A stretch of DNA of 39,184 nucleotides. Source: a virus. The translations under genes and the position numbers were made by a program. Positions 941-36,702 of the stretch are shown here, piece by piece. The stretch lies in UHGV virus genome UHGV-1367746, one strand, 5' to 3'. How positions within the stretch are numbered: position 1 is the first letter of the stretch; each line of letters opens with the position of its first letter. The notes under the pieces were generated by a model. The model was not told where the DNA came from. It searched no databases and saw nothing but the letters and a program-made list of their open reading frames with translations.

Positions 941-2707
941 CTAGTGAAACGTAACGTAGGCCCCTAGTCCCAGCTCGTCGTCCGTATCGTGAGTTACTCG
1001 GACCCCATTGTCCCAGAACTCAGTGTGGATGGACTCGAAGCCTTTCCGTGGGTTCTCCATCTGTTCCTCCAGCCACTCCTCAGTGACTTCACGTTCGCCT
1101 TTGTTGGCATCCTTAGCCATAGACTCAACGAAGAACTGTACACCGATAGCCAGCGCATCAAGTCGGTCATCGTGTGCCAAGGCTCCACGTTCACGAGAGA
1201 TACGGGTCATCTGGTAGAAGAGAGAGTAGATAGGGTTACGAACACCATCCTTATCAGAGGCTGACTGGTAGTCTTGGACGATAGCAGCAGCGTTAACGAT
1301 AAGTCTGTGAGACCCCATGATAGGCTCCAGAACGTCACAGATGCGGAGTTCCTTCTGACCCTTACTCTTCACTTCAGTTACAGCCGCAGGATGGATACGG
1401 GCCGCTACAGGCTTGAATAACTCAAGGTACATACCATCACCGAAGTTACCCTCAATGACGTATTCGTTGACCTTCCACTTACGACCAATCTTAGCCAGAG
1501 CTTCCAGAGTAGAGTCTTCATAACCTCCACGCATACCACCAACTTCCATAGCGAAGATGTAGCCGTTGAGCTGGTATAGTACCGCATATCCAGTTTCATC
1601 CTTACCACGACCACTAGGGTCAATGACCAGAATCTTCTGGGTGTACGAGCTGAAGGCAGAACCTACAGTCTGATACGTGTGGTATGAGTCACCCATGAGT
1701 CCAACGTTAGGAACGTCCTCACGCTTGTTCTGAGGGTTAGGAAGCCATTGGTAGACCATTGGGCTAGACGCTGGGTCCAAGTCTGCTACGATAAGGTCAC
1801 GGAGCTTCAGAGGGTACTTCTCGGCATCACTCAGGTTAGGGTTAAGCATGAACTGTAGAGCGAAGCCAGCTTTACCATAAGACAGCTCACGTTCCTTCAG
1901 GTCCGTATCATCGAATCGTACTTCATCGGTAGGACGCCAGTAGAAGGACTCAGGGTCCTCTTCCAGCTCTGCCTGAAGCATCGGTGCCAGACGGTCGCCG
2001 TAAGACTGCCAGTCCTTCTTATCACGTGGATAACGAGCAGGCCAGATAGTAGTGGTGTATCCACGGCCTTCCAGCTCACGATACAAGGTCATCTCGTTCT
2101 GAGGAGTACCCAGATAGATGATTGTACCTCCCGGCTTCAGGATAGCGTCGAACTCTTTCACAAGCTCTGACAGACGGTCTCTGGCAGCCTGAGTCGCTGA
2201 GTTGTTCGGAACCTCCACGTCATCGGCAATCAGGATGTCAGCACGACTACCAGTCAACTGACCAGTGATACCAACAGACTTAACCGAAGGTGAGTGGTCT
2301 GGCTTGGCTGGCCCAACGTCGAAGCTAATAACCGCATCTCGCTGTCCCTGCTTAGGTTTGAGTTCCTGAAGCTGAGGCATGAGGTCGATGATTCGCTTGA
2401 TGAAGATGGAGTTCGCATCGGCTCGTTCCTTTGAGGCCGACACAATCATGAACTTCAAGTCTGGGTTGTTCCATAACTTCCAGACCACGAAACCACAGGT
2501 CAGAAACGACTTGCCGATACCACGGAAAGCCTGAAGGATGAAGCGGCGATTATCCCCAGCAGCCAGCTTCTTACACATATCTATCTGGCAGCGTGTTGGA
2601 ACCGGAAGGCTAAGAGCTTTCCAGAGAACGAAGATGAAGAATACGAAGTCGTCCCTCATCCTTCGGGTCATTTCTGCCTGTCTTTCAACAGGTGTTTTCT
2701 TAGACAT
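941..2707 (-). CDS. Terminase large subunit (T7 gp19-like, DNA maturase B)
   Basis: 588 aa; extended identity to remembered T7 gp19 ([96 protein letters not shown]). Confidence 0.95.
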
Positions 2708-4162: not shown

Positions 4163-6163
4163 TTACCAGTAGTACCAATCACCTTTCCTACTTCTAATTA
4201 GAACAGAGCAATCGGCAACGGGTACTGTAGATACCCCACCAATCCTTATCTCATATAATTTACTGGGTAGTCTTTTCTTAGTTAGAGATGCTTTAAAATC
4301 TGTACCGGTTACAGTGATATATTCTGTCCCCTCCTCACTAGCTATCTGTAGGTCCAGACCACTGGGACTTGCTGGCAACTTAACATAAAGCTGCTGTTCT
4401 GCTGTACTACCGGCGAAATGACCGATAACGGTAGTTGTCCACTCACTCAAAGTCAGCCCTGAGCGCACAAAATCTACATTAAGGGGTTCCTTAATAAGTG
4501 CAGCAGGTGCGTTGTAATTATGCCCGTTAAGTACATAGTAGTTGCTGCTACCAACCTCTACTGTGTCTGCTGTGCAATAGGAGTGGAAGGTTCTTGAATT
4601 ATCAAAACGATAAAGACTTCTGATTAGCACACGCTCTTGATTACTTCTGGTTAAGATACCACAACCAGCAGATAGGTGAAGTGTAGAGATGGTAAGTGTA
4701 TGACTCTCGCTGTTAGCCTTAGACGACAATAATGATACCTTCGGCTCACCCACCTGAGTGAAGTCTTTACTGTTGCCCTCGCAGTACATAACCCCAATGT
4801 CCCACGCAGCAGGGTCCATTGTTACCACACCAGCACCAGATGTATTCTCAGAGCAAATCACACCAACACTAGTAGATAAACCACGACCTAAGATAATACC
4901 AGCACCTATCGTATATTTACTCGCATCATCTGTGATTGGGTCATAACCTAGTCCAGTAGACTTATCTGTACCCCATGCACTAATGTGAGGGAAGTGTGTA
5001 GCATTTACATAGGTATCCCCTTGCTCACCTTCCGTTGAATAACCTAATGCCACGCCCCTTGCACAGTTGTTTGCATGGAGAGTACCCATTTGAAAATACC
5101 AGCAAGCAAACATTACAATGCCATATCTATTAGCATTATATGCATAGATACTACCCATCTCGGATTCTGCACACATTAGTCGTGCGTAAAAACCATACGA
5201 TGCAATGTCTGCACAGTCTATGTTAAGACTGCCAATCAAACGTAGCCCTCGTACTTGGTTCTCAGTATTAGCTACATCAACGGTTTTGGTTCCAATAGGA
5301 AATTTACTAACACGAACAACAGATTTTAATGCAGGCCATGTTGGACCAATTGCTTTAATTGTTGCCCCATTTAGATTCCCACGTAGGTAAGAGGGGATAA
5401 CAACCTCATCTGTTACGTGGTAGGTAGCCTTGCCATCAAGGTTTAATGTGCCTGTAGCTATGGCCAATTTTATAGCAGGTAGACAGTCAAAGCTGGGGTC
5501 GTTCGGGATTGCCCCAAAGTTCTCAGGTGAGTGCTCATCAAGCCCATTCAGCTTACCTACGTTAGTCCAATTGGAATCAGGGGTTGAACCTGCAGGCACT
5601 GTTTTTGGGAGAGCACCATCCCAGCGGTAATAATAACCATCCTCTTCCCTTAGCAGGACCTCGTTCCATAGTGTAACGGTGAAGCCTTTCTCGAAGGAGC
5701 TACGGGTAATATAGCCAATTAGACCAGCCTCCCTGATACTCGAAACTATTCGTCGTGCTTCGTCCTCGCTATCCTTAGCGCTGCCAGCAGAGTTACCAGC
5801 AGCATCGGCATATTCCTTCGCTAAGTCAACAGTTTGGTCTCGCCCTTCTTCTGCAATATGGATAGCCTGAAGCTCCGAATTGGTCAGGTCACTAGCTGTC
5901 AACACTGAGCCATTCCTGAAGTCTACCACTAAGTCAGTTCCAGTCTGACGGTGAATACGAACGACGTCGAAACCTGATTGGTCAGCCAACATCTCAATCA
6001 TCGTTGGATTAAGGAATCGGTAATCTCGACCAACTTCTAGTACACGGTTCAGGGCAGGGTTAGAGCTATTCACCAGCGTAACAACAACAAACGTTCTGGC
6101 TAGGTAGTCGAACTCAATCCTGTACCGAGTGTTTCCTGAAGGGAATTGTGTAATCGTGGACAT
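4163..6163 (-). CDS. Tail fiber / tailspike (gp17): T7-like N-terminal adaptor domain with divergent C-terminal receptor-binding domain
   Basis: 666 aa; N-terminal about 150 aa matches T7 gp17 (F.YLAR.FVVVTL, DYRF, D.T.GS.L.A.DL); remainder lacks T7 shaft repeats and looks like a beta-helix tailspike (inference). Confidence 0.9.
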
Positions 6164-6209: not shown

Positions 6210-6232
6210 GTTTCCTATAGTGATAGTTTAGT
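6210..6232 (-). promoter_or_regulatory. Phage RNAP promoter (phi17-like), +1 at 6215
   Basis: Minus-strand CTAAACTATCACTATAGGAAACT upstream of tailspike gene with AAGGAGG RBS. Confidence 0.75.
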
Positions 6233-9200
6233 CCTTGATGTGGATGCCTTGCTCCTCAAACGTTCCAAGTAACAGCTTCTGGGTAATTGGGTCGTTCGGA
6301 ACCAGTTCACGGAACGTATTATACATCCCGGTCATGTAGTCACGCTCGTTGACGCGAGTATCAGCCTTGAGGTAGCCAGCCAAGTTGTAAGCCGAAGCGC
6401 CAACGTTAGCAGCATATCCGAAAGCTGGAACCTGCTCCAAGAAGTTACCAACAACATTCATAACAGGGTCACTTGTAGCCGCACCATACGCGATGGCACG
6501 TTCAGGCTTCTCTGTAGGCGAACGAGGTAGGATAGACGAACGGAGCATCTTAGTGTCCTCATACCCAGCGATGCCACCCAGAATGTTAGCTACCCCAAGT
6601 GGACCACCCAGATGTGAACTACGGGACAGAGCCGCATAACCAATCATCGTCGGGTCAAGAGCTTGCTTGAGGTATTCACGGTCTCTGCCATCCTGCATAG
6701 CGTAAGCCTTGACGTGAGCCTGAGCCATGTAGTAGATACCAGCCAGACCCATAGACATCACGGTAGATAGAGCAGCATCCATCGCTCGGTTGTTCTTCGT
6801 GGCGTTATAGAAGGTTCGCATGGTACGTCCATTGATGGACTTGATGACGAAGTTCTTAAACTGAAGGACAGTCTTAGCGAGAGGACCATAAGCCTTGGCA
6901 TCCATGTTTGACAGCTTGTGGGGCCGGAGTAACGTTTCGTCAGCGATGGTGTCACCCATACGCCACAGGTCCATAGCCCTTGGGTCCTGACTGAACGCCC
7001 TCTTATCCTTGATGGTGTACTTCCCGTCTGGACCACGAGTCACTGACTCACGGATTAATGACTTAATGCCCTTCCACTGCTCGTCAGATATACCAGCGGT
7101 CTTCAGCCAGCGGTCATCGAACTTACGCTTACTACCAGTCAGGCTATGCTCCACGATGTCAGACAGGAAGCCTTGACGTCCAGCATCTAACAGGTAGTTG
7201 GTCGTACCGTTGAGAACTTTAGTGAACGGAGAGCGTACTGCAAGTTCACCAGTGTAATACTTGGCAGTCCCCAGAGCTGTAGCTGTACCACGACCGAGGT
7301 CACTGTAAGACCGCAGACGGTCAATGACATCCTGTTTAGATGGGCGTATTGAGTCATCAAGTTCCTTACCAAAGATAACATTGTGCAGGTCCTTAATCTC
7401 TGAGGCCCCAACCTTCTTGTTACGGAAGGCTAGGTCACGGAAAATTGGGACTCCATGCAGCATTGCACGAACGTTACCACGGGCCAGCATACCACCAATC
7501 TCCGTTAAGTTCTGAACACCCATATAGGCATTCTTAGCGAAGAACGATAGGTCTGTCATTGTGCGCATCACGGTAGCGAAGGCTGCATCGTCAGCACCAT
7601 CACGTCGAGCACGACCAGTTAGAATCTTAAGTGTGTCACGCAAGGTAGATACTTCACCTTTCAACTTTCCGTCATCACCAGCCTTGTTCATCATGGTCTC
7701 AACCAAGTCCTTCATTTCTTTCGTTGTCTTGCCTGTACCAGCCATAATAGCAATGTCACCATTAACTCGACGGTTGTATGCCGGGACAATCTTGTCCATG
7801 TCCCACTCACGCAGGTTGTTGACACTGAAGGTTTGACCATTAGGAAGAACTATTGACATATCGCTGTCGAACAGGTTACGAGCCTCAAGGAAGCTGTTGT
7901 TCTCCAGACCCACCAGACCATTGATGTTCTCTTCCATTACGGATGAACGCTCGAACTGCTCGGTGTGAGAGATACCATAAGCCTTATCGTTGGCGTACTT
8001 ATCTACCGCAGCCGCAAGTCCTTCTGGAGTCAACGTAGGGTCAGCCTCTAAGAGTGCCTCGTCCACACGTTTCTTGACCTCAGGTCGAGACGCATAGCTG
8101 GTCAACCATGACTTCTTGATGGCCTCCTGTAGTGCCTCTGGACTTCCAAGTTCCTTGATGTACAGCTCCTTCATCTGGTTGCTATATACATGTGGGACGT
8201 AGGTTCCCTTGAATCGGCTACCCGGAAAGATAGACTGAGCGTCTGGACGACCAAACATCGCCGGGTTCTCCATCATCTCACGCTTGGCGTCAAACTGGTT
8301 CTTCAGCAGGTCATAGACTTTCAGTTCTCCCGGAGTCAGTTCAGCCTTCAGGTTCCCACTTCCGTCTTCAATAGCCATAGACACACGCTGGTAGATGTCC
8401 TGACGGAATGCGCCAGAGTCTCTCCAGAATGCTGTCTGGAAGTATGGGTCCTTGAGCGCCTCAGTAACCGCGTCGTCGATGTCGTTGTAGAACCGATGGT
8501 CCACAGCACGAAGTCTCTCGAATACGTCTGACGCAGTGGTCCCGATTTTACCTGAGGCCCCTGACTGCATACCGGTTGGTGAACGCACTAAGTCGGCAGC
8601 GACTCCACGAATCTCAGGGTTCTCAGACCGAAGCAGCTTCAGGCCAATCTCAGTTAGTCCACCAAGGTTCACACCAGCAGCTGCACGTTCAGGCTCAATC
8701 ACTTCGTCAAAGACCTTACGTGTCTTAGGGTTCAGAGGGTTCTCACCAATCAGTATTGAACCATCTTCAAGTCGTACACTACCCGGCTCATTCGGAACGT
8801 CAGCTAACTTAACGCCTTGATGACTAAAGGTCTCCTCACCTTCTTGAATAGGTAGACGAGACAGGTCCTGACCATCAACGTTACGGGCTGTCTCACGAGC
8901 TTCCAGACGTGTGGCTGGACCAGCGAACTCGTTAGTGTTACGACCTAAGGCTCTGCCTAAACCATCAGCGATAGCAGTCATACCTCCACCGAAGAGAGCA
9001 CCGCCAAGGATAGCCTCAGCCACATGAGCATCACCGCCAGCCACTGAGGTACGGGCCATCTCGGACACACCAGCCAGTGCTCCAGATTGAGCAGCCACGG
9101 TGAACATCTTGTTTACTAGCTTACCACCTTTACCAACCTGTCCAGCTATAGGAACGTAGGTCAGCGGGTCTACACCAGCACCAATCACACCAGCAGCTAA

Positions 9201-10115
9201 CTGAGCACCAATCCCTGCCTTGGCCTTCTCTTGGTCCAACTTCTGGTTCTCAAGCGCCAAGTTAATAAGCTCGGTCAGGTTCTGAGGTGAGCCACCAGTA
9301 ATGACCCCGTAATACTGAGGAAGAACTCCAGCGTTACGAATCTGGTCCAGCTCCTCACGAGACCACTTATGGTTGTTCCATCGCGTCGGGTTGAACACAT
9401 CGCCAATGACATCCAGTGAGTCCTCAGTCTGACCAGCGCGGATAGCCACGCCGACCATAGAGTTCTTCACTTCAGCTTCTGTAGCCGCACCAAAACCAAA
9501 CCACGTAGAGCGGTCTTCTCGCTCCTGCATGGTCTTGCCAGTAGATTTATAGAACATCTCACCGAACGATTCGTTTGGAGCTTCAGGTGCTTGACCCTCA
9601 ATATTCAGACCAGCAGCGGTCGGAAGGTTCTCACCCAGAGCTGCTTTAGGTTTAGCCTTGAGTCCTTCCGTGAGTGCGTCAAATACGTTAGCGCTTACTG
9701 GTGGAGTCTTTGGGCTAATGCCATTGAGTGCTCGTGCGACTCCCTTCTGATAGACTTCAGGGTCGTACCGGGAGCCTGTCTCATGGAAGCTGATAGCTTG
9801 AGCCAGAGAAGACAGGGTGTCAGGGTCCGATAGGTCGAGACTCTGGGTAGCTGGAATACCAGTTGCAGCCACCACTGAGTCAATATAAGCCTTAGTGTCG
9901 TTCTCGTTAGGAGGTGCCCATCGGTTGATAATCTTCTCGATGGAGTCATAACCTCGGCGACCGTAGGACAGCAGGTTTTTACCTAAAGCTCGGACGCCAG
10001 ACTCTGGACTATCGAAGGTGACGAATGCGCCATCATCTCCAGTCATTCCTTCCCATTGGTCCTTACTTACCCGGATGTTACCCGGATTGTTATTGCGAAT
10101 ACCACGAGTCGCCAT
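6228..10115 (-). CDS. Internal virion protein D (gp16-like) with non-SLT N-terminal domain
   Basis: 1295 aa; long colinear similarity to T7 gp16 from about residue 200 onward (GA.L.AG.IGAGVDPL.YVP, RLEARETARN, VRSPTGMQSGASGK, NPA.FG, GTYVPHVY, SRPEVK.RVDE, GDIAIMG.TGKTTKE, RSPWTK.LNGTTNYLLDA); N-terminal about 190 aa unlike T7 transglycosylase domain. Confidence 0.9.
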   Translation of the reverse strand: MATRGIRNNNPGNIRVSKDQWEGMTGDDGAFVTFDSPESGVRALGKNLLSYGRRGYDSIEKIINRWAPPNENDTKAYIDSVVAATGIPATQSLDLSDPDTLSSLAQAISFHETGSRYDPEVYQKGVARALNGISPKTPPVSANVFDALTEGLKAKPKAALGENLPTAAGLNIEGQAPEAPNESFGEMFYKSTGKTMQEREDRSTWFGFGAATEAEVKNSMVGVAIRAGQTEDSLDVIGDVFNPTRWNNHKWSREELDQIRNAGVLPQYYGVITGGSPQNLTELINLALENQKLDQEKAKAGIGAQLAAGVIGAGVDPLTYVPIAGQVGKGGKLVNKMFTVAAQSGALAGVSEMARTSVAGGDAHVAEAILGGALFGGGMTAIADGLGRALGRNTNEFAGPATRLEARETARNVDGQDLSRLPIQEGEETFSHQGVKLADVPNEPGSVRLEDGSILIGENPLNPKTRKVFDEVIEPERAAAGVNLGGLTEIGLKLLRSENPEIRGVAADLVRSPTGMQSGASGKIGTTASDVFERLRAVDHRFYNDIDDAVTEALKDPYFQTAFWRDSGAFRQDIYQRVSMAIEDGSGNLKAELTPGELKVYDLLKNQFDAKREMMENPAMFGRPDAQSIFPGSRFKGTYVPHVYSNQMKELYIKELGSPEALQEAIKKSWLTSYASRPEVKKRVDEALLEADPTLTPEGLAAAVDKYANDKAYGISHTEQFERSSVMEENINGLVGLENNSFLEARNLFDSDMSIVLPNGQTFSVNNLREWDMDKIVPAYNRRVNGDIAIMAGTGKTTKEMKDLVETMMNKAGDDGKLKGEVSTLRDTLKILTGRARRDGADDAAFATVMRTMTDLSFFAKNAYMGVQNLTEIGGMLARGNVRAMLHGVPIFRDLAFRNKKVGASEIKDLHNVIFGKELDDSIRPSKQDVIDRLRSYSDLGRGTATALGTAKYYTGELAVRSPFTKVLNGTTNYLLDAGRQGFLSDIVEHSLTGSKRKFDDRWLKTAGISDEQWKGIKSLIRESVTRGPDGKYTIKDKRAFSQDPRAMDLWRMGDTIADETLLRPHKLSNMDAKAYGPLAKTVLQFKNFVIKSINGRTMRTFYNATKNNRAMDAALSTVMSMGLAGIYYMAQAHVKAYAMQDGRDREYLKQALDPTMIGYAALSRSSHLGGPLGVANILGGIAGYEDTKMLRSSILPRSPTEKPERAIAYGAATSDPVMNVVGNFLEQVPAFGYAANVGASAYNLAGYLKADTRVNERDYMTGMYNTFRELVPNDPITQKLLLGTFEEQGIHIKD

Positions 10116-10120
10116 TATGT

Positions 10121-12403
10121 TTACTCCTTACCGATTAGTACGTTTGCGATACCCTCCAGTGAGACGTCATTGTACATCCCACCGCGCTTCTCGATGTCGG
10201 CCTCTCGGTCAGCTCGACGTTTATCACCAGCAGCTTTAGTCCCGACGATACGCGCTCGCTTGTTAGCGTCACGTTCTGCCTGAGCGTATGCGGCATCCTG
10301 TGCCTTCTGCTGTTGTTCGCGGTAGAGTTTACCTACAAGTTCTTTATCGTAGCGAATACGAATAGTACCTGTAGCGTCTTGGAGGAAGATAGAGCCGTTC
10401 TGTTCAACAACGGACAACTGAGAGTTCACTACCCAAGGGTTGGCCTTAATGAGCTGCTTACGGGCGGTGTCGATAATGTCTCGACCTACCTGCCACGACT
10501 CAGGGTTATCCCCGACCATAAGCTGGTGCTTGGACACCATGCCGATGGACTTACCGTCAGAGCCTTCAGACTGGAACGTTACGGTATTTTCATTCAGCCA
10601 TCGTTGAGTCTGCTGAGTTGCAGCGTCAGCGTTACCTGTACGATAGTACCATGAGTCCCAGACCTTACGAGCACTTGAGTCCAGAGACGTAGGAAGACGC
10701 GAAAGGTCCTTATTCCGAGAGTCGTTCTTCAACTCCTGCCACGCCTTGTCTGACTCCATGCGCATCTCACGGCTTTGACTTGCAGCTTGCTTATCAGCTT
10801 CAATCATCGTCTGAGGGTCCAGACCCATCTTGTCCATCTGGTCGAACGTAGAGAACAACTGAGCTTGGTCAGGATACAGAGCAGCGAAACTTGAAGGGTC
10901 CTGAGTGTAGGCACGACGAAGAGACTCGAAGCGCTTCATCTTGTCTGGGTCGTACTGTCCACGGATGACCGCAGCTTGCCACTCACCAGCAGCGTCCTGA
11001 GTAAGCGTCTGGAAGGCATTACGGAACGGACCGTTGTTAGTGTCAGCTCTTAACAATGCCACCTTCTGAGCGTCCTTAGCAGCCTCAGGGATGTCCATCT
11101 GGTCAATCTGCTGTAGCTTGGCAGACGCATAGTTGTTCATGTCTGAACGCTTGAACTCTCCTGTAGCTTCAGAGACCGGAAGGTCCTCATAGTTGGTGGA
11201 CACGTTGTCCCCAGCCAGACGTCGCTGATAAACTTGGTCGATGACCAGTTGCTTGTTCTGGGTCTGGATTAACTTAGTGTTCTCCTTTGCCTGTTCAGCA
11301 GACTTACGCTTGACCGCTTCCAGTAAGCTGGCTTCGGCATTAATAAGCATCTGACGCTGAGGAGTGAGTTCTTCACCCGGCTGAAGCAGGTTGTTCTGCT
11401 CCTTGAGTTTCTGAATCTGGGCAAGACCAATGGTTGGGTCATCCTGAAGAATCGCAGACTGAACGCCTAACGCTAAGTCTTCCTGATACTTAGCCACCAG
11501 CTTGTACTCAGTTCCTTGTGCCTCAACAATAGCAGCGTTGAAGACATCAGGTCCTACAATCTCTTCGACTGTAGCGTCCACACCGTTAAGGGTTATTCGC
11601 TCGCCTCGTACTTGCTGTAGGAAGTTTGAGCCTCCTGACTTCTGGATTGCGTCACGGACCGTCTGGGTGATGACCTCTCGTGCTCTCTGGTCCGAAGGTA
11701 TAGCAGCAGTCGTCAGTCCATCCCGAAGGTAGGCCATGAAGGTCTTTCCAGACTCAGGCGAACGCATCAGGTCCCCATCGTTAAGGAACGAGTTCAACTC
11801 AATACGAGTGTTCAACATTGCTGTCTCTTCAGACTGCTTGCTGAAATACTTATTGAAGGACCCGTAGATAGCGATGTTTCGGTCCGTGATGTTATCGTTG
11901 AATCCACGCTGGAAGAACTCGTCGGTAGGGTTAATACCTGCCTCTTCAGCATAGGACTTAGCGGCATCCTGAAGTCGCTGGTGGCGATATTCTTCCATTT
12001 CCTGACGTGTGCGGAACTCACCGTTCTGAATCTTAACGTTAATCTCGTCGTCTACAGCAAAGGCAGCATTACGACCAGTCTTGACTCGAAGTGCTTCCAT
12101 AGCGTAAGGGTCATCCTGATACAGCAATGTGCCATTCTGGATAGCCTCACGTCTCTGCTGAGGTGTCAACTTACGGATAATCTCGTTAGACCGCTCGTCA
12201 GCTCTGGTCTTCTCATCGTCCTTGAACTGCTTGTACAATCCTGTCCCAGACTCAACGAAGTTAGTTAACGCACGAGCCAGACCGGAGTCACCAGTTGGAG
12301 CCTGAACGCTGGCTGCTTGATAGTTGACGGCGATAGTTTTACCCGGCGCTCTGCCACGACCCATAGTCCGATTAGCCAGAGCTGATTCAATATTACTAGC
12401 CAT
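10121..12403 (-). CDS. Internal virion protein C (gp15-like)
   Basis: 760 aa; similarity to T7 gp15 (ERSNEIIRKLTP.QRREA..NGTLLYQDDPYAMEALRVKTGRNAA, EEMEEYRH.RLQ); synteny. Confidence 0.85.
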   Translation of the reverse strand: MASNIESALANRTMGRGRAPGKTIAVNYQAASVQAPTGDSGLARALTNFVESGTGLYKQFKDDEKTRADERSNEIIRKLTPQQRREAIQNGTLLYQDDPYAMEALRVKTGRNAAFAVDDEINVKIQNGEFRTRQEMEEYRHQRLQDAAKSYAEEAGINPTDEFFQRGFNDNITDRNIAIYGSFNKYFSKQSEETAMLNTRIELNSFLNDGDLMRSPESGKTFMAYLRDGLTTAAIPSDQRAREVITQTVRDAIQKSGGSNFLQQVRGERITLNGVDATVEEIVGPDVFNAAIVEAQGTEYKLVAKYQEDLALGVQSAILQDDPTIGLAQIQKLKEQNNLLQPGEELTPQRQMLINAEASLLEAVKRKSAEQAKENTKLIQTQNKQLVIDQVYQRRLAGDNVSTNYEDLPVSEATGEFKRSDMNNYASAKLQQIDQMDIPEAAKDAQKVALLRADTNNGPFRNAFQTLTQDAAGEWQAAVIRGQYDPDKMKRFESLRRAYTQDPSSFAALYPDQAQLFSTFDQMDKMGLDPQTMIEADKQAASQSREMRMESDKAWQELKNDSRNKDLSRLPTSLDSSARKVWDSWYYRTGNADAATQQTQRWLNENTVTFQSEGSDGKSIGMVSKHQLMVGDNPESWQVGRDIIDTARKQLIKANPWVVNSQLSVVEQNGSIFLQDATGTIRIRYDKELVGKLYREQQQKAQDAAYAQAERDANKRARIVGTKAAGDKRRADREADIEKRGGMYNDVSLEGIANVLIGKE

Positions 12404-12414
12404 TAGTCCTCCTC

Positions 12415-13002
12415 TTAGCTATGACCTGTAGGTGTGCCTTTAGCAGCACTAATAGGTGCAGAACCACCAGAGCTTGAAGTCCCGGCGATAGACTTACCAG
12501 CAGCGTATCCCTGCATCCCGGCGCTGGCAACATTAAGTGCATGAGCCAGTGGGCTGGTCTTGATGATTCTACCTTGACCACGGATAGCAGACTTTGTGTT
12601 CTCAATGTTGGCGATACGGTTCCCGAAGATAGCCGCATAATCGCGGTTGTAACTTTCGGTAATCCCTGCTCGCTCTTTGACTGTATCTCCTTCTACCTGA
12701 CGTTCAATCCTGTCCATAGAGTTACCTTCCAGTCCGGACTCAGCCACCGCAGCTCGGACCATGCCCTGATTGCGGATACCGTTGAGCGTGGTCTCTGTCA
12801 GTTCAGCCATCTGCTGCTCCTTCAGGTCTCGCTCCTGCATCTTCAGGTTGGCGTCAGAGTAGTTCATCTGCTTAACCATTTCCTGAGCCTGTCGGTTCTG
12901 AGCGTCAATTGCTGCACCTTCGGCCTTGGCCTGCTGGGATGCGGACATAGTGGCCCCGGCTACAGCCATGATACCCATGCCGATACTTACGGGTTCACAC
13001 AT
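12415..13002 (-). CDS. Internal virion protein B (gp14-like)
   Basis: 195 aa; starts MC like T7 gp14; motifs LEGSSMDRI, NYRRDY.AIF, API.AAKGT.TG; synteny. Confidence 0.85.
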   Translation of the reverse strand: MCEPVSIGMGIMAVAGATMSASQQAKAEGAAIDAQNRQAQEMVKQMNYSDANLKMQERDLKEQQMAELTETTLNGIRNQGMVRAAVAESGLEGNSMDRIERQVEGDTVKERAGITESYNRDYAAIFGNRIANIENTKSAIRGQGRIIKTSPLAHALNVASAGMQGYAAGKSIAGTSSSGGSAPISAAKGTPTGHS

Positions 13003-28626: not shown

Positions 28627-29085
28627 TTAACCACGGTCGGAAGTGACCAGTTCGTTGGTAGATAGCCAGCGTTGCAAGTCAAAACTTGGACACGCCTTCG
28701 GTGCCACGTCATGGTGTGCTTTGATTTCTGCCTGAGGATACAGGACCTTCAGGTCAGCCAGCTTGTTGCGCAGGGAGTTCATCTGGGCTGGAGTGAAGTT
28801 AGCTTCAAACTGACCCTTAGCGTCTATTCCACCTACAAGGCAGACGCCTACAGACCGTGAGTTCCAGTCCTTAACATGTGACCCTACGACATTGACCGGG
28901 CGGCCCTCTTCCACAGTACCGTCACGTTTGATGATAAAGTGGTAGCCTACGTCCAGCCATCCTTGCTGCTTGTGCCACATACGGATGGTCTCTACCCCGA
29001 TGTCCATCTCTGGCTTGGTAGCCGAACAGTGAACGAAGATAGCGTCAGTACGGGACCGTGGGTTGAACTGTACCTTACTTACCAT
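28627..29085 (-). CDS. T7 lysozyme-like N-acetylmuramoyl-L-alanine amidase (gp3.5-like)
   Basis: 152 aa; very high similarity to T7 gp3.5 (VQF..R..TDAIFVHCSATKP, WH..QGWLDVGYHFIIKRDGTVE.GR, GVCLVGGID.KG.F.ANFTPAQM.SLR, AHH.VAPKACPSFDL.RW...NELVTSDRG). Confidence 0.95.
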   Translation of the reverse strand: MVSKVQFNPRSRTDAIFVHCSATKPEMDIGVETIRMWHKQQGWLDVGYHFIIKRDGTVEEGRPVNVVGSHVKDWNSRSVGVCLVGGIDAKGQFEANFTPAQMNSLRNKLADLKVLYPQAEIKAHHDVAPKACPSFDLQRWLSTNELVTSDRG

Positions 29086-30719: not shown

Positions 30720-30742
30720 CTGTCCTACAGTGATAGTTTAGG
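30720..30742 (-). promoter_or_regulatory. Phage RNAP promoter (phi2.5-like), +1 at 30725; single mismatch at -3
   Basis: Minus-strand CCTAAACTATCACTGTAGGACAG upstream of SSB gene. Confidence 0.6.
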
Positions 30743-30896
30743 CCTCAGGACGAATCCGTCCGACCACAAACCCAGCGTCCTCATACTCTTGGGACTTCAA
30801 GGTAGCCTCTTCGAGAGACTTTGCGTACACCGGAACCTCGAAGGACTGAACGCGACCCTCAAGCTCCACGATGTATTTCTTCTCAACCTCAGTCAT
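30738..30896 (-). CDS. Inhibitor of host RNA polymerase (gp2-like)
   Basis: Similarity to T7 gp2 (SFEVP.YA..L.EA, AGF.V.R.RP); start placed at ATG 30896 with AAGGAG RBS (52 aa); ORF track extends to a GTG at 30974. Confidence 0.75.
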
Positions 30897-30974
30897 AAAC
30901 CGCGCTCCTTCCATTGGTTGTATAACGTAATGTAGTCCGGGTTGAGAGTCTTCTCGTACATCTCCCGGCACCAC

Positions 30975-31415
30975 TCACTCGGAATCATAGCATTTACCCT
31001 TATGCAGGTCGAACAGCTCCTGATAGAAGGCCGCTTTGTTCAGGTCCTTCTCCATAGTAGCCAGCTCGGACTTCTTGCCAGCTCGTAGTCGATACTTCAG
31101 GACGTTACCCATGCAGAAACCACGGAACTCGCTGACAGTCATGGACCGGGCGATAATCTCAATGGACTCTACGCCGTCAAAGACCTGATAGTGGGATGGC
31201 TTGCGTACAGCGTCGTCACGGACTTCTGGTTTGTCCTGAACAGTATTGGTGATAATTAGTGCGGCTTTACCGTGTTTAACTGGCTCAATAAGCCCAGGCC
31301 ATTTCACCTCTACTGAGTCCCCTGAGTTACATACGCTAAGAACCTTACCATCATAGCGGCCAATAAATTGACTATGCGTCCCAGCGTAGCGAACAACATC
31401 CCCGACCTTAATCAT
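30975..31415 (-). CDS. Nucleotide kinase gp1.7-like
   Basis: 146 aa; C-terminal half closely matches T7 gp1.7 (KPSHY..FD..E.IE.IARSMTV..F.G.C.GN.LKYRLRAGKKSELA..EKDL.KA.FY.ELF..HK.KCY). Confidence 0.8.
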   Translation of the reverse strand: MIKVGDVVRYAGTHSQFIGRYDGKVLSVCNSGDSVEVKWPGLIEPVKHGKAALIITNTVQDKPEVRDDAVRKPSHYQVFDGVESIEIIARSMTVSEFRGFCMGNVLKYRLRAGKKSELATMEKDLNKAAFYQELFDLHKGKCYDSE

Positions 31416-31668
31416 TGACCACCTCCTTCACGAACTCAACGAACAGACGAACACGAGGCCATTTAGTGTAGACCACGGGTACGTTGGTCTCACGCTTCTG
31501 GCGAGCCTCTTCAGCTTTACCCGGAGTAATCAGAGCGAAGACTGTAGGTGACAGCTTAACGGCCTTCCCGAAGTAGCCCAGCTTCTCGTTGCGCTCAATG
31601 CAAGCGAATGGGTTGTTAGACAGGTGGAATGTACTGGTATAACGATTGAACATTAAGTTCTTAAACAT
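31408..31668 (-). CDS. Hypothetical protein (gene 1.6 position)
   Basis: 86 aa ORF directly after a phage promoter with AAGGAGG RBS; synteny only. Confidence 0.55.
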   Translation of the reverse strand: MFKNLMFNRYTSTFHLSNNPFACIERNEKLGYFGKAVKLSPTVFALITPGKAEEARQKRETNVPVVYTKWPRVRLFVEFVKEVVND

Positions 31669-31695
31669 GTCGGCCTCCTTAGGTCGAAGTTATGG

Positions 31696-31718
31696 TTGTC
31701 CTATAGTGATAGCTTAGG
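31696..31718 (-). promoter_or_regulatory. Phage RNAP promoter (phi1.5/1.6-like), +1 at 31701
   Basis: Minus-strand CCTAAGCTATCACTATAGGACAA. Confidence 0.7.
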
Positions 31719-31740
31719 GTCAGGCTGGTGGCCCAGACGA

Positions 31741-31781
31741 TAGCTAGCTAGCACAAAGCAAAGAAACCCAGCAGTCCGAAG
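31741..31781 (-). terminator. TE-like early terminator (intrinsic) after the ligase gene
   Basis: Minus RNA CCCAGUGGUC-UUCG-GACUGCUGGG (10-bp stem, UUCG tetraloop) followed by UUUCUUUGCUUUG; location matches T7 TE after gene 1.3. Confidence 0.7.
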
Positions 31782-31801
31782 ACCACTGGGTTGACGTTTA
31801 G

Positions 31802-32893
31802 TTAGCTCTTAACGGTTGGATTGTCTTCCGTTCCACGCCAGCACTTGAAGCTGGGATGACGGAGTGAGCCATCCGGGAACCGCTCCATGAATAGGACTTC
31901 ACACTGCCAGCCGTGGTAGGGGTTGGTGTCTTCAGGTTCAGACCCGAAGTCTTCAAAGTCCTCACGGAAGCTAATGGTCTGTTTAACCTTAGCTGTGAAC
32001 TCGTCCTTCTGTTCTTCAGTCAGACCACAGGCGTTAACCACCATGCCATCCTCAAGCAGCACCTCGAAGCCAATCACCTTACCTTCGTTCGCCTTACCAG
32101 GAGTCCCCCACACGAGGCCACACACGGTCCCGTCGATGGTCTCCTCAGGCTTCATTTTCCACATGCCAGACTTCTTGCCACGCTTGTATTTACCCAGCGG
32201 GTCCTTGACTACCAGACCCTCATGTCCTTCCAGACGCTTCTGTTCGTACAGGGAGTTGAGCGACTCAAGGTCATAGACCGTGTGAGACTCAGACAGAACC
32301 CAGTCGATTTCCGGGAAGTATTTCTGGAGGAGAGGGACAATAGCTTCGGCCTTCAGGCGAGTGACGCTATGGATGGGACCTTCGGCTTTCGGGTCGTTGA
32401 TGACGTTAAGGTCGATGACCCCGTAGACGACCACTTGTAGGAACTCAGGGCTAATCTGGAATGGAACCTTGTTAGACTTCTTGGTCTCCATATCGGCCTT
32501 AGGGTTAATGTTCCACTTGTAGTTCTTGCGGTCAGACCACATGGTGCGGATAAGACCTGAGGATGTGTTGAAGTCTACACCCTTGACCATCACCTCTCCG
32601 TCAATCATCAGGCCAGAGACTTCATGTCCTGCTTGCTTCAGGAACCATCGCCAGTCGGACGCACGGCATGCTCCGATGTCCTGACCAACTGTTGACAAAT
32701 GGTCTAAGGCCGGAAGCGTCTTTGACTCACGGCTTAACCATTCAGTTCGCCCATCAGGGAAGACCGGAATATTCAACCGCACACCGTCATACTTAACTTC
32801 AGCTTCCAGAGACCCGGCAGCAGCCAGCGCCTTCTTAACGCCAGACTCAGAGTAATCTACAGCGCGGTGCGGGTTAGTTTTGATAGTTGTCAT
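31802..32893 (-). CDS. ATP-dependent DNA ligase (gp1.3-like)
   Basis: 363 aa; strong similarity to T7 ligase (IKTNP, E.KYDGVR, WLSR.SKT.PAL.HL, DGE.MVKGVDFNT.SGL.RT, YFPEI.W, LYEQKR.EGHEGL.VKDP...YKRGKKSG.WKMKPE, GLVWGT.G.ANEGKVIGFEVLLE, PDGSLRHPSF..RGTEDNP). Confidence 0.95.
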   Translation of the reverse strand: MTTIKTNPHRAVDYSESGVKKALAAAGSLEAEVKYDGVRLNIPVFPDGRTEWLSRESKTLPALDHLSTVGQDIGACRASDWRWFLKQAGHEVSGLMIDGEVMVKGVDFNTSSGLIRTMWSDRKNYKWNINPKADMETKKSNKVPFQISPEFLQVVVYGVIDLNVINDPKAEGPIHSVTRLKAEAIVPLLQKYFPEIDWVLSESHTVYDLESLNSLYEQKRLEGHEGLVVKDPLGKYKRGKKSGMWKMKPEETIDGTVCGLVWGTPGKANEGKVIGFEVLLEDGMVVNACGLTEEQKDEFTAKVKQTISFREDFEDFGSEPEDTNPYHGWQCEVLFMERFPDGSLRHPSFKCWRGTEDNPTVKS

Positions 32894-32910
32894 CGTTAAT
32901 GTCTCCAGAA

Positions 32911-33198
32911 TTAAAGGAATCGACCAGTGTAGTCGTTGAACTGTTTGTTAAACCAAGTGGCAACCGCTACGGTCTGCACGTCTTCGTCATGAATATTCGG
33001 GTACTCCGTGAAGTCCTTCTCGATTAGGACCTCTTTCGTATGGCTGTGGACTATAACCACCCGGACGCAGTGCCTGTTCATCACTGGGTCAAACCAAGTG
33101 CTGACCTCTGCATTGTATTCCGTCTCGGTCTGCCAGTTGTGGATGGCTGTACGCAGAGTGTTCAGGTTGCCGCTATGCGCTCTTGAAAACATGCCCAT
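32911..33198 (-). CDS. gp1.2-like protein (T7 gp1.2 is a host dGTPase inhibitor)
   Basis: 95 aa; weak similarity to T7 gp1.2 (N-terminal SGNL, internal HDEDV) plus synteny. Confidence 0.65.
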   Translation of the reverse strand: MGMFSRAHSGNLNTLRTAIHNWQTETEYNAEVSTWFDPVMNRHCVRVVIVHSHTKEVLIEKDFTEYPNIHDEDVQTVAVATWFNKQFNDYTGRFL

Positions 33199-33200
33199 GT

Positions 33201-33381
33201 TTATGCTCCTACGAAGTATTTCTCTTGGTTGACCATAGAGTCTTTGCCTTCAGCGTTACGGAAAGCACCTTTGACACCGCCTCCACGCTTTGTCTTGTTC
33301 AGCTTGCGGCCCTTCGGAATGTAGCCTTCAGTCTTCTGACGTTCACGGATGCGCTCGAAGTTGATAGTGTTCTGATACATG
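33201..33381 (-). CDS. gene 1.1-like small basic protein with apparent frameshift (possible pseudogene or sequence error)
   Basis: ATG at 33381 opens a frame that stops after 12 codons; the adjacent frame encodes ...FERIRERQKTEGYIPKGRKLNKTKRGGG... (matching T7 gp1.1 GRKLNKTKR) but has no in-frame start; removing one C of AACCTTC would fuse them into one 59-aa ORF. Confidence 0.4.
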
Positions 33382-33420
33382 TTGTAGCTCCAGTTGTTTA
33401 GGTTATAGGGTTAATCATGA

Positions 33421-33445
33421 AGGCCACGACTTTAAGTCATGACCT
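33421..33445 (-). promoter_or_regulatory. Conserved RNA hairpin (candidate RNase III site, R1.1-like)
   Basis: Minus RNA AGGUCAUGAC-UUAAA-GUCGUGGCCU, 10-bp stem with 2 G.U; immediately downstream of the promoter at 33457. Confidence 0.5.
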
Positions 33446-33451
33446 TGAGTC

Positions 33452-33474
33452 TAATCCTATAGTGATAGTTTAGG
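33452..33474 (-). promoter_or_regulatory. Phage RNAP promoter (phi1.1-like), +1 at 33457
   Basis: Minus-strand CCTAAACTATCACTATAGGATTA. Confidence 0.75.
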
Positions 33475-33548
33475 TCAACCTCTTCTGCGTTGGATTAAAG
33501 TGAATACTGCTAGTGCTCCCAGCCACAAGGCCAGTAACTGTAGGTGTG

Positions 33549-33764
33549 TCATTTGGTCTGCTCCAGCTTGGACACTGCGTCTTTCAGGTACTTCTCGTGG
33601 CTGGATTCCACAAGATAGACGAGGGTCTTGAATGGGACGTTAAGCTGTTTTGACATCTCGGTAGGAATGACAGTGGTCTTCACCAGACCCTTGCCGTTGT
33701 GTTCTGTTACGGTCACGATTTGAGTCCCGCCCTTAACTCCAGCCTGCTTGTGTGCAAAATTCAT
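33549..33764 (-). CDS. Hypothetical protein (early/class II ORFan)
   Basis: 71 aa ORF downstream of RNAP gene; no recognised homolog. Confidence 0.5.
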   Translation of the reverse strand: MNFAHKQAGVKGGTQIVTVTEHNGKGLVKTTVIPTEMSKQLNVPFKTLVYLVESSHEKYLKDAVSKLEQTK

Positions 33765-33774
33765 AACTCTCTCC

Positions 33775-34005
33775 TTATCTAATCATAGGGAATGACGGAT
33801 ATTGAGTGCGCTCGTCTTCCCTCCACGCGTTAAGCACTTCATCAATCGAGGCTATAAGGTTGTACTCGTTAGGTTGAATCCACCCAGTCACACCTGCTTG
33901 TAATCTTTCGCGGAGAATGACTAAATCCTTATAAGTAAGCTCTACATGGCAACGTCCTGACCCATCGTTGAATGCCTTGTTGTGTGCTACAAGTTTCATT
34001 GACAT
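33775..34005 (-). CDS. Hypothetical protein (early/class II ORFan)
   Basis: 76 aa ORF immediately downstream of RNAP gene; no recognised homolog. Confidence 0.5.
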   Translation of the reverse strand: MSMKLVAHNKAFNDGSGRCHVELTYKDLVILRERLQAGVTGWIQPNEYNLIASIDEVLNAWREDERTQYPSFPMIR

Positions 34006-34020
34006 ATACTTCTCCTGCTG

Positions 34021-36702
34021 TTAAGCGAATGCAAAGTCTGAAGACAAGATGTCCTCGATATTCAGTTTACCTTTCTTCGGAAGCTCAGGCAACTTGTCGC
34101 GCTGGCTCTCGTGAAGCTGGTATTCAAACTGCTCGTAGAAGTCAAGCAGCACATCGTTGTCGCGGTAAGTCTCTACCATCGTCTCACGGACGCCACGGAA
34201 CAGATACTCAGCGTCAGCCGGGATGGTCCCGAAGCTATCGTGAATCACTGCGAATGACATCACGCCATACTTGCGGTGAGTGTGGACTACAGTCTTTCGG
34301 AGGTGGCTACCATCTTGTGAGTGGACGAAGTTCGGGCTAATGCCTGACTCCTGCTTGTGCTTGTCCAGCTCTTTCTTCGTGCCTTTGTTGACTGTAGGCT
34401 GAAGGTTGAATGACCCTAAGAACATCAGGTTCAGACGAGTGGTATCCTTCTTGCGGTATTCCTGCCATACCGGGAACCCATCAGGTGTGACCCAGTGTAC
34501 CGGAAGACAAGGCTTCAGGATTTCTCCAGTCTTCTTGTCCTTCACCTCAGCAGCCAGCAGCTTGGCAGCACCTTGAAGCCACTTCATCGCGTCAACCGCA
34601 GCAACTACTGTCACACTCACAGCTTCCCAAATCATCTTAGCCATGAAGCGAGACGCTTGGCTTGGTTCAGTGAACATAGCGCCAGACCCTGAGTCAATCG
34701 CTGGCATCACGATGTCCTCGTATACTTGGTCTGCGAAGCCGTACTCTTTCGACCCGTAGGCCAGAGTCATGACCGAACGCTTAGTGACCTTGCGTGACAT
34801 ACCGTAGGTCAGCCACTGACGGGCCAGCTCTCGTGTCCCCAGCTTGAGACGCTCGGTAATCTCACCAGTTTTCTTGTCCTCGTGAGTTGCCATCTCGTTG
34901 TCCGTACCGTTAACCAGCAGGACTTTGAGTTCCTCCTCAATGCGGTCAGACACAATGCGATAGATGTCTTGGACCTTACCGGATGGCGTTAGGTTTACTG
35001 CATGCCCACCGATGTGGTCACGAAGCATCGCGCTGAAGTGCTGAATCCCAGAGCAGGACCCATCGAAAGCTATCGGCAGCGAGCAGGAGTAAGACAAACC
35101 GTGGTGCATTACGCCAGCATACTCGAAGCAGAACGCTAGGAAGCAGAACGGAGAGTCTAACTTACCCCACCACTCAATGCTGTCCATCGGTGCCTTAGCG
35201 GTAGCCATGATGTTGTCGTGGTTATCTTCCACCCACTTGATGCGCTCCTCGAAGGTTACTTTATCAATACCCGCACAGTTTGCACCGTGGACCTTCAGCC
35301 ATTTGAAACCATCAGCACCAATAGGCTTACCGACTGCCAGAGTCAGGAGACCCTTTTGCATGTCGTTACCCTGAGGGTTGAACATCGGCACAGCGTAGAC
35401 GCGACCGCGCCAGTCCATGTTGTACGGAAACCAGATGGCCTTGAACTGAGAGAACTTGTTCGCTTGGTTAACGATAAAGCTCAGTGACAATCTACGTGAC
35501 TGCCGGGCCTTCTCTCGGCGGTAGATACCAGCAGCAGCCTTCTTCCATGCCTTGAGTTCCTCTTCAGTCTCACCCGCATAGTCTTCAGGCTTCAGTGGCT
35601 CCATCTGAGGGATGTCATCAATAGGTGTGTTGTTCAACTTCTCGACCATGTTCACCACGTCCAGCACCTTCTTGTTCACTTTCCAAGGTGTATTCTGGAT
35701 GATATTCACAGCGTCATAGACTTCAGGCATGTATACGTCTTCATAACGTGCCACCGCTGACTTAGACCCTAAGCGAATCAGGGGCAGCGGTCTGCGACCT
35801 TTGGCCCAGTACCCACCGCCTACGACACCAGTCCACGGCTTAGGTGGAACGACGCAAGGCTGGTAGACTGGAGCGATACCCGCAAGGCTGAATCCTCGTT
35901 GTGCCATCTTCTTGACCCAGCAGTCTGACAGGTGGACCATCTCTACGTCAGCCGCTGCATTGCCAGCACCGTACCGCTTAAGCTCGACCAGTTGTGTTGA
36001 CTGGATGACAATCTCAAGCATCTTGATGCCAACGTGGACAGCCTCTGTAGGACTCCAAGTCCCCCACGCATCTTCCAGTTGGCCTTGCTCCAGCATGGAT
36101 GCCTCGACCGCTTGCATGTAGGCTTTCTTGTAGGACGCCCCGGCCCGCTTATTCAGGTTATCAGCTATCGCCTTCTTGAAGTGCTCTTTCTCCTTGTCAC
36201 GGATGCGGCCGAAGCGGATTTCGTCCTCAAGTGTGCGACCTATCGCGGAGGCCATCGGTGTAATCGGTATCCCTTCAGGCTTGACCAGCTTGGAGAGTAT
36301 GACCTTCAGTATGATAACCGCAGCAGACTCACATGAGATGCGCAGAGAGCGGTCCTTGACGGCCTTCTCTTCAGTGCTCAACATGGTGAACGCCACGCTA
36401 GGACGAGAGGTTGACAGCTTCCCGTCTGGCCCTTCATGCCACTCCCTTACGGCTTGCGCAATCTTAGGGACCAGAGTCTGCATCAAAGGCTTGGCGACCT
36501 GATTGTCTGCCAGTTCCCCGCGCTCAGTCTGGCGCTCAAGGTTCTTGATGAAACGTCGCTCGCCTTCAGTGTATGCCTCGTGCTCAAGCTGAAGCTGTTT
36601 GACTGCAAGGTCTTGCCCGTAGTGGTCAGCCAGCAGGTTAAACGGCTCAATGGCGTTCGACACATCAGAGAAGTCGTGTTTTTCAATAGAGATGACGCTC
36701 AT
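34021..36702 (-). CDS. Single-subunit DNA-directed RNA polymerase (T7 RNAP-like, gene 1)
   Basis: 893 aa; extensive identity to T7 RNAP (DFSD, PFN.LADHYG, IWFPYNMDWRGRVYAV.MFNPQGNDM.KGLLTLA.GKPIG, WLK.HGANCAG.DKV.F.ERIK..E.NH.NIMA, DSPFCFLAFCFEYAGV.HHGLSY.CSLP.AFDGSCSGIQHFSAMLRD, RSVMTLAYGSKE.GF, HDSFGT, C-terminal FAFA). Confidence 0.98.
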   Translation of the reverse strand: MSVISIEKHDFSDVSNAIEPFNLLADHYGQDLAVKQLQLEHEAYTEGERRFIKNLERQTERGELADNQVAKPLMQTLVPKIAQAVREWHEGPDGKLSTSRPSVAFTMLSTEEKAVKDRSLRISCESAAVIILKVILSKLVKPEGIPITPMASAIGRTLEDEIRFGRIRDKEKEHFKKAIADNLNKRAGASYKKAYMQAVEASMLEQGQLEDAWGTWSPTEAVHVGIKMLEIVIQSTQLVELKRYGAGNAAADVEMVHLSDCWVKKMAQRGFSLAGIAPVYQPCVVPPKPWTGVVGGGYWAKGRRPLPLIRLGSKSAVARYEDVYMPEVYDAVNIIQNTPWKVNKKVLDVVNMVEKLNNTPIDDIPQMEPLKPEDYAGETEEELKAWKKAAAGIYRREKARQSRRLSLSFIVNQANKFSQFKAIWFPYNMDWRGRVYAVPMFNPQGNDMQKGLLTLAVGKPIGADGFKWLKVHGANCAGIDKVTFEERIKWVEDNHDNIMATAKAPMDSIEWWGKLDSPFCFLAFCFEYAGVMHHGLSYSCSLPIAFDGSCSGIQHFSAMLRDHIGGHAVNLTPSGKVQDIYRIVSDRIEEELKVLLVNGTDNEMATHEDKKTGEITERLKLGTRELARQWLTYGMSRKVTKRSVMTLAYGSKEYGFADQVYEDIVMPAIDSGSGAMFTEPSQASRFMAKMIWEAVSVTVVAAVDAMKWLQGAAKLLAAEVKDKKTGEILKPCLPVHWVTPDGFPVWQEYRKKDTTRLNLMFLGSFNLQPTVNKGTKKELDKHKQESGISPNFVHSQDGSHLRKTVVHTHRKYGVMSFAVIHDSFGTIPADAEYLFRGVRETMVETYRDNDVLLDFYEQFEYQLHESQRDKLPELPKKGKLNIEDILSSDFAFA

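Follow-up and report, generated by a model that had tools for sequence, protein, structure and literature searches.

The gp16 gene and its surroundings

The window analysed here is the whole stretch of 39,184 nucleotides of the virus genome UHGV-1367746. Judged by its sequence, it is essentially the whole genome of a T7-like Kayfunavirus (K1F-like) in reverse orientation, and its positions 9400-10300 are 97-98% identical at the nucleotide level to many Kayfunavirus phages, including vB_EcoP_F, Vec13, PE3-1 and Pkp-1. The gene for internal virion protein D, gp16, lies on the minus strand at 6228..10115 and encodes 1295 amino acids, with an ORF that starts MATRGIRNNNPGNIRVSKDQWEG. By direct sequence reading, a Shine-Dalgarno motif AAGGAG was found on the same strand at 10124..10129, separated by 8 nt from the gp16 ATG (10113-10115) and adjoining the gp15 stop codon (10121-10123). 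Two short ORFs within 9546..10115, namely 9591..9833 (plus) and 9695..9949 (minus), were set aside as mechanical ORFs inside the well-supported gp16 gene.

The neighbouring genes follow the order gp14-gp15-gp16-tail fibre of a T7-like late region, as expected for a T7-type gp16. The gp14 gene (12415..13002) was recognized by its match to Pfam T7_gp14, and gp15, coding for internal virion protein C (10121..12403, minus), by BLASTP with 47% identity to T7 gp15. The tail fibre or spike of 666 aa (4163..6163, minus) carries a T7 tail-fibre N-terminal domain, after which a TSP1/gp66-type tailspike N domain was observed. It is not the K1F endosialidase, an enzyme of about 1060 aa, so the receptor is probably something other than the K1 capsule. 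Farther away, a gp3.5-type Amidase_2 gene (28627..29085) represents a separate lysis enzyme of the window genome, which serves lysis and lysozyme-type regulation.

Comparison of the gp16 body with T7

Apart from its N-terminal head, the window gp16 aligns as an ordinary internal virion protein D of the T7 type. BLASTP against T7 gp16 (NC_001604) aligned 1182 columns at 53% identity, starting at window residue 125 (T7 residue 152) and ending at the C-terminus, and phmmer against the T7 gp16 chains in the PDB likewise started only at window residue 126 (T7 residue 153). This colinear homology to the C-terminus is what places the protein among T7-type gp16s. Furthermore, the window gp16 matched phrog_342 at an E value of 0, and the PDB chain 9vvp_L ('Gp29') matched it over the full 1295 aa.

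To describe the similarity along the chain, identities in a global alignment with T7 gp16 were taken in 25-residue windows. They were at noise level (8-28%) for residues 1-125, 24-28% for residues 126-200 and 48-72% from residue 201 onward. An earlier sequence-only reading of this DNA had placed the start of colinearity with T7 at about residue 200 and had taken roughly 190 residues as replaced. The strong identity does indeed set in at residue 201, but the alignment already begins at about residue 125. As delimited by these alignments, the differing module comprises residues 1 to ~125-130 (window 9726..10115), and residues 131-200 form a diverged but colinear linker.

This linker (9516..9725, minus) is colinear with residues ~157-228 of T7 gp16, and the positions GI[ST]PK...PE[AE]..F...F are kept in the gp16 alignment. 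In T7, residues 157-228 are described as a 'molecular tape' that cements the periplasmic tunnel of gp15 (PMC8954989). The conserved body, residues 201-1295 (6228..9515, minus), would by T7 homology be the part of the ejectosome that crosses the inner membrane. At the nucleotide level, comparison of T7 with the window located no recombination breakpoint; the similarity was patchy (67-74%) and absent around the junction.

Absence of the transglycosylase domain

In T7, the N-terminal position is occupied by a lytic transglycosylase domain, as the sequence-only reading had stated, and the T7 gp16 N-terminus, used as a positive control, matched SLT PF01464 at 5e-31. The window gp16, searched as a whole protein and as residues 1-200, gave no match in Pfam (E<=1) or in NCBIfam. 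BLASTP of residues 1-190 against the first 200 aa of T7 reached a best E value of only 3, and a profile of 32 family sequences compared with T7 residues 1-156 obtained an hhalign probability of 0.2%. Neither GLMQ nor AYNxG was found in the window gp16 N-terminus. Membership in SLT/GH23 of the T7 gp16-N type is thus not indicated by PF01464 or by the motif and profile comparisons.

Within residues 1-200, 'ES' dipeptides occur only at 38 and 182. The first of these, at 38-39, lies near T7 E37-S38 and was considered as a transglycosylase motif, which was rejected because both residues vary across the family: E38 is not a conserved catalytic residue, as other family members have V, Q or K there. 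The proposals made from the sequence alone, that the head does not resemble the T7 SLT domain and lacks lytic transglycosylase motifs, are therefore borne out.

Identity of the N-terminal head

Homology and predicted fold identify residues 1-130 of gp16 (9726..10115, minus) as a peptidoglycan glycosidase domain of the Enc34/PM2-P5 (PHA02564) type. When the first 200 residues were searched against the PDB with phmmer, it was not an SLT protein that was returned, but 7q47_A, annotated as 'Endolysin', with an E value of 3.9e-15 over residues 3-122. Six PHROG families containing the domain were also matched, with E values down to 4e-56. Their annotations comprise endolysin, head protein, tape-measure protein and tail-injection transglycosylase, with the domain embedded in larger virion proteins.

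For the analysis of conserved positions, the window head was aligned with 31 diverse homologues (42-58% identity), giving 32 sequences. The family motif RGIRNNNPGNIR opens the head at residues 4-15 and is mostly invariant across this alignment. In the HMMER alignment, Trp79, Tyr95 and Glu131 of Enc34 correspond to window residues W66 (9918-9920), Y77 (9885-9887) and E112 (9780-9782), all on the minus strand, which are proposed here as active-site residues. Y77 and E112 are invariant among the 32 sequences and W66 is kept in at least 90% of them. Among other gp16 proteins, those of Dev2, Kc166A and Pipis all retain Y77 and E112. That of Kosakonia phage Kc166A has Tyr at the W66 position, and in that of Pipis a Gln takes the place of the His preceding the Glu.

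An AlphaFold2 model of the head, built from the 32-sequence alignment, had a mean pLDDT of 88. In a Foldseek search of this model against the PDB, 7q47 was the sole significant match (TM 0.81, probability 1.0), so that structure prediction and structural-alphabet search point to the same protein as phmmer does. Sequence similarity, a model that superposes on 7Q47 and the aligned Trp/Tyr/Glu signature altogether place the head within the Enc34/PM2-P5 family. The domain identity, its fold, the conserved active-site residues, its position in gp16 and its distribution are established by the present analysis. The proposal that a domain swap had brought in a different wall-targeting module accordingly holds, with an Enc34-type domain in the SLT position; the option of some 'other ejection module', not directed at the wall, finds no support, the proposed catalytic Trp/Tyr/Glu signature being intact.

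Relation to characterised enzymes

The structure 7Q47 is the catalytic domain of the ORF39 endolysin of Hafnia phage Enc34, belonging to CDD family PHA02564 (PMC8943055). This domain (ORF39ΔC) lyses outer-membrane-permeabilised E. coli, P. aeruginosa and H. alvei (PMC8943055). It is built entirely of helices, arranged much like the α-lobe of lysozyme after circular permutation (PMC8943055). From structural superposition, its authors proposed Trp79/Tyr95/Glu131 as a signature common to GH73 and GH23 enzymes; they also suggested shared ancestry with both families and concluded that the family members are probably β-N-acetylglucosaminidases (PMC8943055). A second enzyme, M4LysΔTMD of Salmonella phage BSPM4, degrades purified peptidoglycan and strips GlcNAc from muropeptides (PMC7143992). 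The M4Lys data have been read both as glucosaminidase and as endopeptidase activity. The fold has also already been tied to two virion proteins, the structural protein P5 of PM2 (PMC9502842) and GP11 of vibriophage NO16 (PMC13552765).

The context of the window copy differs from that of these enzymes. Enc34 ORF39 and M4Lys are lysis-cassette endolysins of ~26 kDa with a C-terminal transmembrane domain, whereas the window copy is the head of a packaged ejection protein of 1295 aa; compared with Enc34, it has shorter loops, with several gaps in the alignment. PM2 P5, NO16 GP11 and Tyrion gp16 are closer in setting, as they carry the same domain in or on the virion with a presumed entry role. However, PM2 and NO16 are tailless membrane-containing phages in which the proteins are small and free-standing, unlike the gp16-fused head, and in Tyrion gp16 the domain is internal and the rest of the protein is unrelated to the window gp16.

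With regard to the T7 SLT domain (GH23, residues 1-156, catalytic E37), the two heads occupy the same N-terminal place and are followed by the same linker and body. They presumably also perform the same job of making way through the murein for the ejectosome. The Enc34 authors trace both, as distant descendants, to the α-lobe of the lysozyme fold (PMC8943055). Yet no sequence or profile similarity is detectable between them, and their core helices follow one another in a permuted order. The T7 domain is a non-hydrolytic transglycosylase and the window head would, by analogy, be a hydrolytic glucosaminidase, so that the two probably cut different bonds by different chemistry. Compared with the GH73 N-acetylglucosaminidases (Thermotoga TM0633, FlgJ and the glucosaminidase domain of C. 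difficile Ecd09610), the window head lacks a β-lobe, has a permuted order of helices and shows no detectable sequence similarity; it falls outside GH73 in the current definition of that family.

Bond specificity and annotation

Altogether, we consider that the gp16 head is an Enc34/PM2-P5 (PHA02564)-type domain which replaces the SLT domain, that it is probably an N-acetylglucosaminidase and that it cuts the wall at entry; we give this reading a probability of about 0.8. The muralytic activity of the window copy, its bond specificity and its entry role would follow by analogy with T7 and with the enzyme family.

Among the alternatives, the one that survives best concerns the reaction. The Enc34 fold could carry lytic transglycosylase or muramidase chemistry, acting on MurNAc-β1,4-GlcNAc, in which case the sequence would have changed and the reaction stayed the same. 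The Enc34 Glu superposes on that of the transglycosylases φKZ gp144 and MltC (PMC8943055), which agrees with this idea, as does the common ancestry with GH73 and GH23, and one figure legend on M4Lys mentions muramidase activity. Many GenBank records also label these proteins as transglycosylases: for Kayfunavirus gp16 (OQ703102, ON637250, MT496969, KX689784) the names include 'peptidoglycan transglycosylase', 'peptidoglycan lytic exotransglycosylase' and 'endo-type membrane-bound chitopentaose', and at least one paper counts Kayfunavirus gp16 among the lysis genes. The 'lytic transglycosylase' names on these genes were, however, inherited from T7 by way of the conserved body and are probably wrong. 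By fold, GH73 is the nearest enzyme class. Given the differing readings of the M4Lys data, a transglycosylase or muramidase reaction is conceivable, but we regard it as unlikely.

Proposed role in the virion

In the case of T7, gp16 is an internal-core protein that is ejected following gp14, and its transglycosylase domain is periplasmic and needed for highly cross-linked murein (PMC8954989). T7 gp16 has also been named among the virion-associated lysins (PMC5380687). The window gp16 retains the linker and body of the T7 protein, and its partner proteins are present too, among them gp15, with which the gp16 N-terminus pairs in the periplasmic tunnel. For the Kayfunavirus type of gp16, presence in the virion has been detected by mass spectrometry in the K1F/Dev2-like phages SH3 and SH4 (PMC4925675). 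In addition, PDB entry 9vvp contains four chains of a protein that is 98% identical to the window gp16. The N-terminus of the 9vvp protein, compared with phage records by tblastn, had a best match of 99.5% and no exact one, and our literature search found no relevant paper describing this entry.

With the N-acetylglucosaminidase reading, the following sequence of events can be proposed. The window gp16 would be packaged in the capsid core and, at infection, would leave through the tail after gp14. The head would then refold in the periplasm and cut glycan strands locally, with Glu112 acting as the general acid and Tyr77 and Trp66 positioning the substrate. Opening of the murein mesh would allow the gp15:gp16 tunnel to assemble, in which residues 131-200 of gp16 may serve as the 'tape' on gp15. 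The scissile bond would probably be GlcNAc-β1,4-MurNAc, by a GH73-like hydrolysis, and not the MurNAc-GlcNAc bond that T7 cleaves non-hydrolytically. The lytic domain of T7 is dispensable under standard conditions, which implies that cutting of the wall may matter only in some conditions. In T7, gp16 E37 mutants show a delay at 20 °C and on stationary-phase cells.

It could also be argued that the head is catalytically silent and was kept for its shape, either as a 'wing' of the periplasmic gp15:gp16 tunnel or as an element of core packing. In favour of this, the head has diverged somewhat faster than the body among the gp16s of the genus (78-81% against 86-96% identity). However, E112, Y77 and RGIRNNNPGNIR are shared with free-standing enzymes of the family at only ~45-58% identity and are also kept across divergent Kayfunavirus gp16s. 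A purely structural role would not preserve these residues, and this explanation is accordingly rather improbable.

Even less probable is an action at the end of infection, with the head serving as an extra endolysin and not at entry. Its free-standing relatives in χ-like phages are lysis-cassette endolysins; here, however, the domain is fused to a packaged core protein of 1295 aa whose gene is flanked by those of gp15 and the tail fibre, a gp3.5-type amidase is encoded separately in the genome and the T7 counterpart works at entry. Finally, an uncharacterised and possibly new ejection or wall-targeting module, as the sequence-only reading had contemplated, has next to no chance: Pfam and NCBIfam offer no model, Pfam domains are absent from all 120 listed homologues and no paper in the library searched names both 'Enc34' and 'internal virion protein', but the phmmer match to 7Q47 and the Foldseek match to 7q47 refute it by leading to a characterised family.

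Distribution of the head

The occurrence of each head was assessed in phage records. In tblastn searches, the Enc34-type domain (residues 1-130) matched 701 phage records. With the gp16 N-terminus (residues 1-200) of the 98%-identical 9vvp sequence, again by tblastn, 220 phage records were matched, all at 60% identity or more; the hosts of these Kayfunavirus-type gp16 records are E. coli, Salmonella, Citrobacter, Enterobacter, Cronobacter, Shigella and Klebsiella. The T7 SLT head had matches in 1139 phage records, those of T7 and of T3/YeO3-12-like, Klebsiella, Pectobacterium and gh-1-like phages.

The Enc34-type domain also occurs, among others, in the endolysins of χ-like siphophages, in DMS3-like Pseudomonas phages, in PM2 P5, in NO16-like vibriophages and in small phages with 'P5-like' proteins. 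Outside Kayfunavirus, the closest relative found in a phage is the copy in gp16 of the ε15-like phage Tyrion (Uetakevirus), an ejection protein of 837 aa whose residues 254-379 are 54% identical to the window head (E 5e-42). SP6 gp36 and gp37 were tested as further carriers and the domain was absent in both.

In a representative library of 1.84 billion proteins, the family comprised 16,958 clusters at E<=1e-3 and 2,380 at E<=1e-30, counted at 50% identity. The copies in this library are either free-standing (~135 aa) or situated N-terminally, in the middle or C-terminally in long proteins. In one library protein of 762 aa (P0121), the Enc34-type profile matched four stretches, which suggests tandem copies. 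Another protein, of 1421 aa (P0219), has the same head at its N-terminus with 47% identity, followed by a body that is 22% identical to gp16 (E 3e-5). The architecture of head plus gp16 is consequently not confined to Kayfunavirus. Regarding protein length within the genus, gp16 of Kc166A (locus L005, CDS from 1456; record 30727..35121) is annotated with 1464 aa, ~170 aa longer than the 1295 aa of the window.

The gp15/gp16 junction and possible exchange of heads

A further observation concerns the end of gp15. BLASTP against T7 gp15 ends at residue 720 of 760, and the last ~40 residues (~721-760; about 10124..10243, minus) are unrelated to the T7 gp15 tail. Dev2, Kc166A and Pipis have this tail in conserved form, different from that of T7. 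As both the gp15 tail and gp16 residues 1-124 are non-T7, they make up one unbroken non-T7 segment of ~500 nt across the junction, and the two parts may have been exchanged, or may be co-evolving, as a unit.

HNH genes were also seen at this place in other phages. In Pipis, an HNH nuclease gene (1025..1474 of locus L006) lies between gp15 and gp16, and in Klebsiella T7-like phages HNH endonuclease genes are annotated beside the gp16 start. A homing endonuclease acting between gp15 and gp16 could favour the swapping of gp16 heads.

A more far-reaching idea is that the heads of podophage ejectosomes are freely exchangeable cassettes, passed on, along with the gp15 tail that fits them, among T7-like, ε15-like and more distant lineages, and that the Kayfunaviruses have in this way switched their wall-entry chemistry from a lytic transglycosylase to an N-acetylglucosaminidase. 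We put this forward tentatively and consider it doubtful. Were it true, entry could depend in another way on the cross-linking of peptidoglycan or on growth phase, could proceed with no release of anhydro-muropeptides, and could be insensitive to wall modifications that block transglycosylases.

Significance

Much of what bears on this locus is already public: the gene, near-identical copies of it, a structure deposit of the whole protein, the domain family, a crystal structure and the activity of the family. Ejection proteins have also already been described as mosaics with a mobile peptidoglycan-hydrolase domain (PMC8954989). The swap is therefore real but ordinary, a known domain in a known protein. 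Our literature search, to which the K1F genome paper did not belong, found no paper that gives Kayfunavirus gp16 an Enc34-type head in place of the SLT domain.

The main value of the finding thus lies in annotation: in these gp16 proteins SLT is absent, and the enzyme is of the Enc34 type and probably a glucosaminidase. It further draws attention to a very large phage domain family, with ~17,000 clusters at 50% identity, that has no model in the copies of Pfam and NCBIfam searched. For the biology of infection, the N-termini of T7 gp16 and of K1F-type gp16 form a natural pair for asking if the kind of wall cut affects the entry of the genome.
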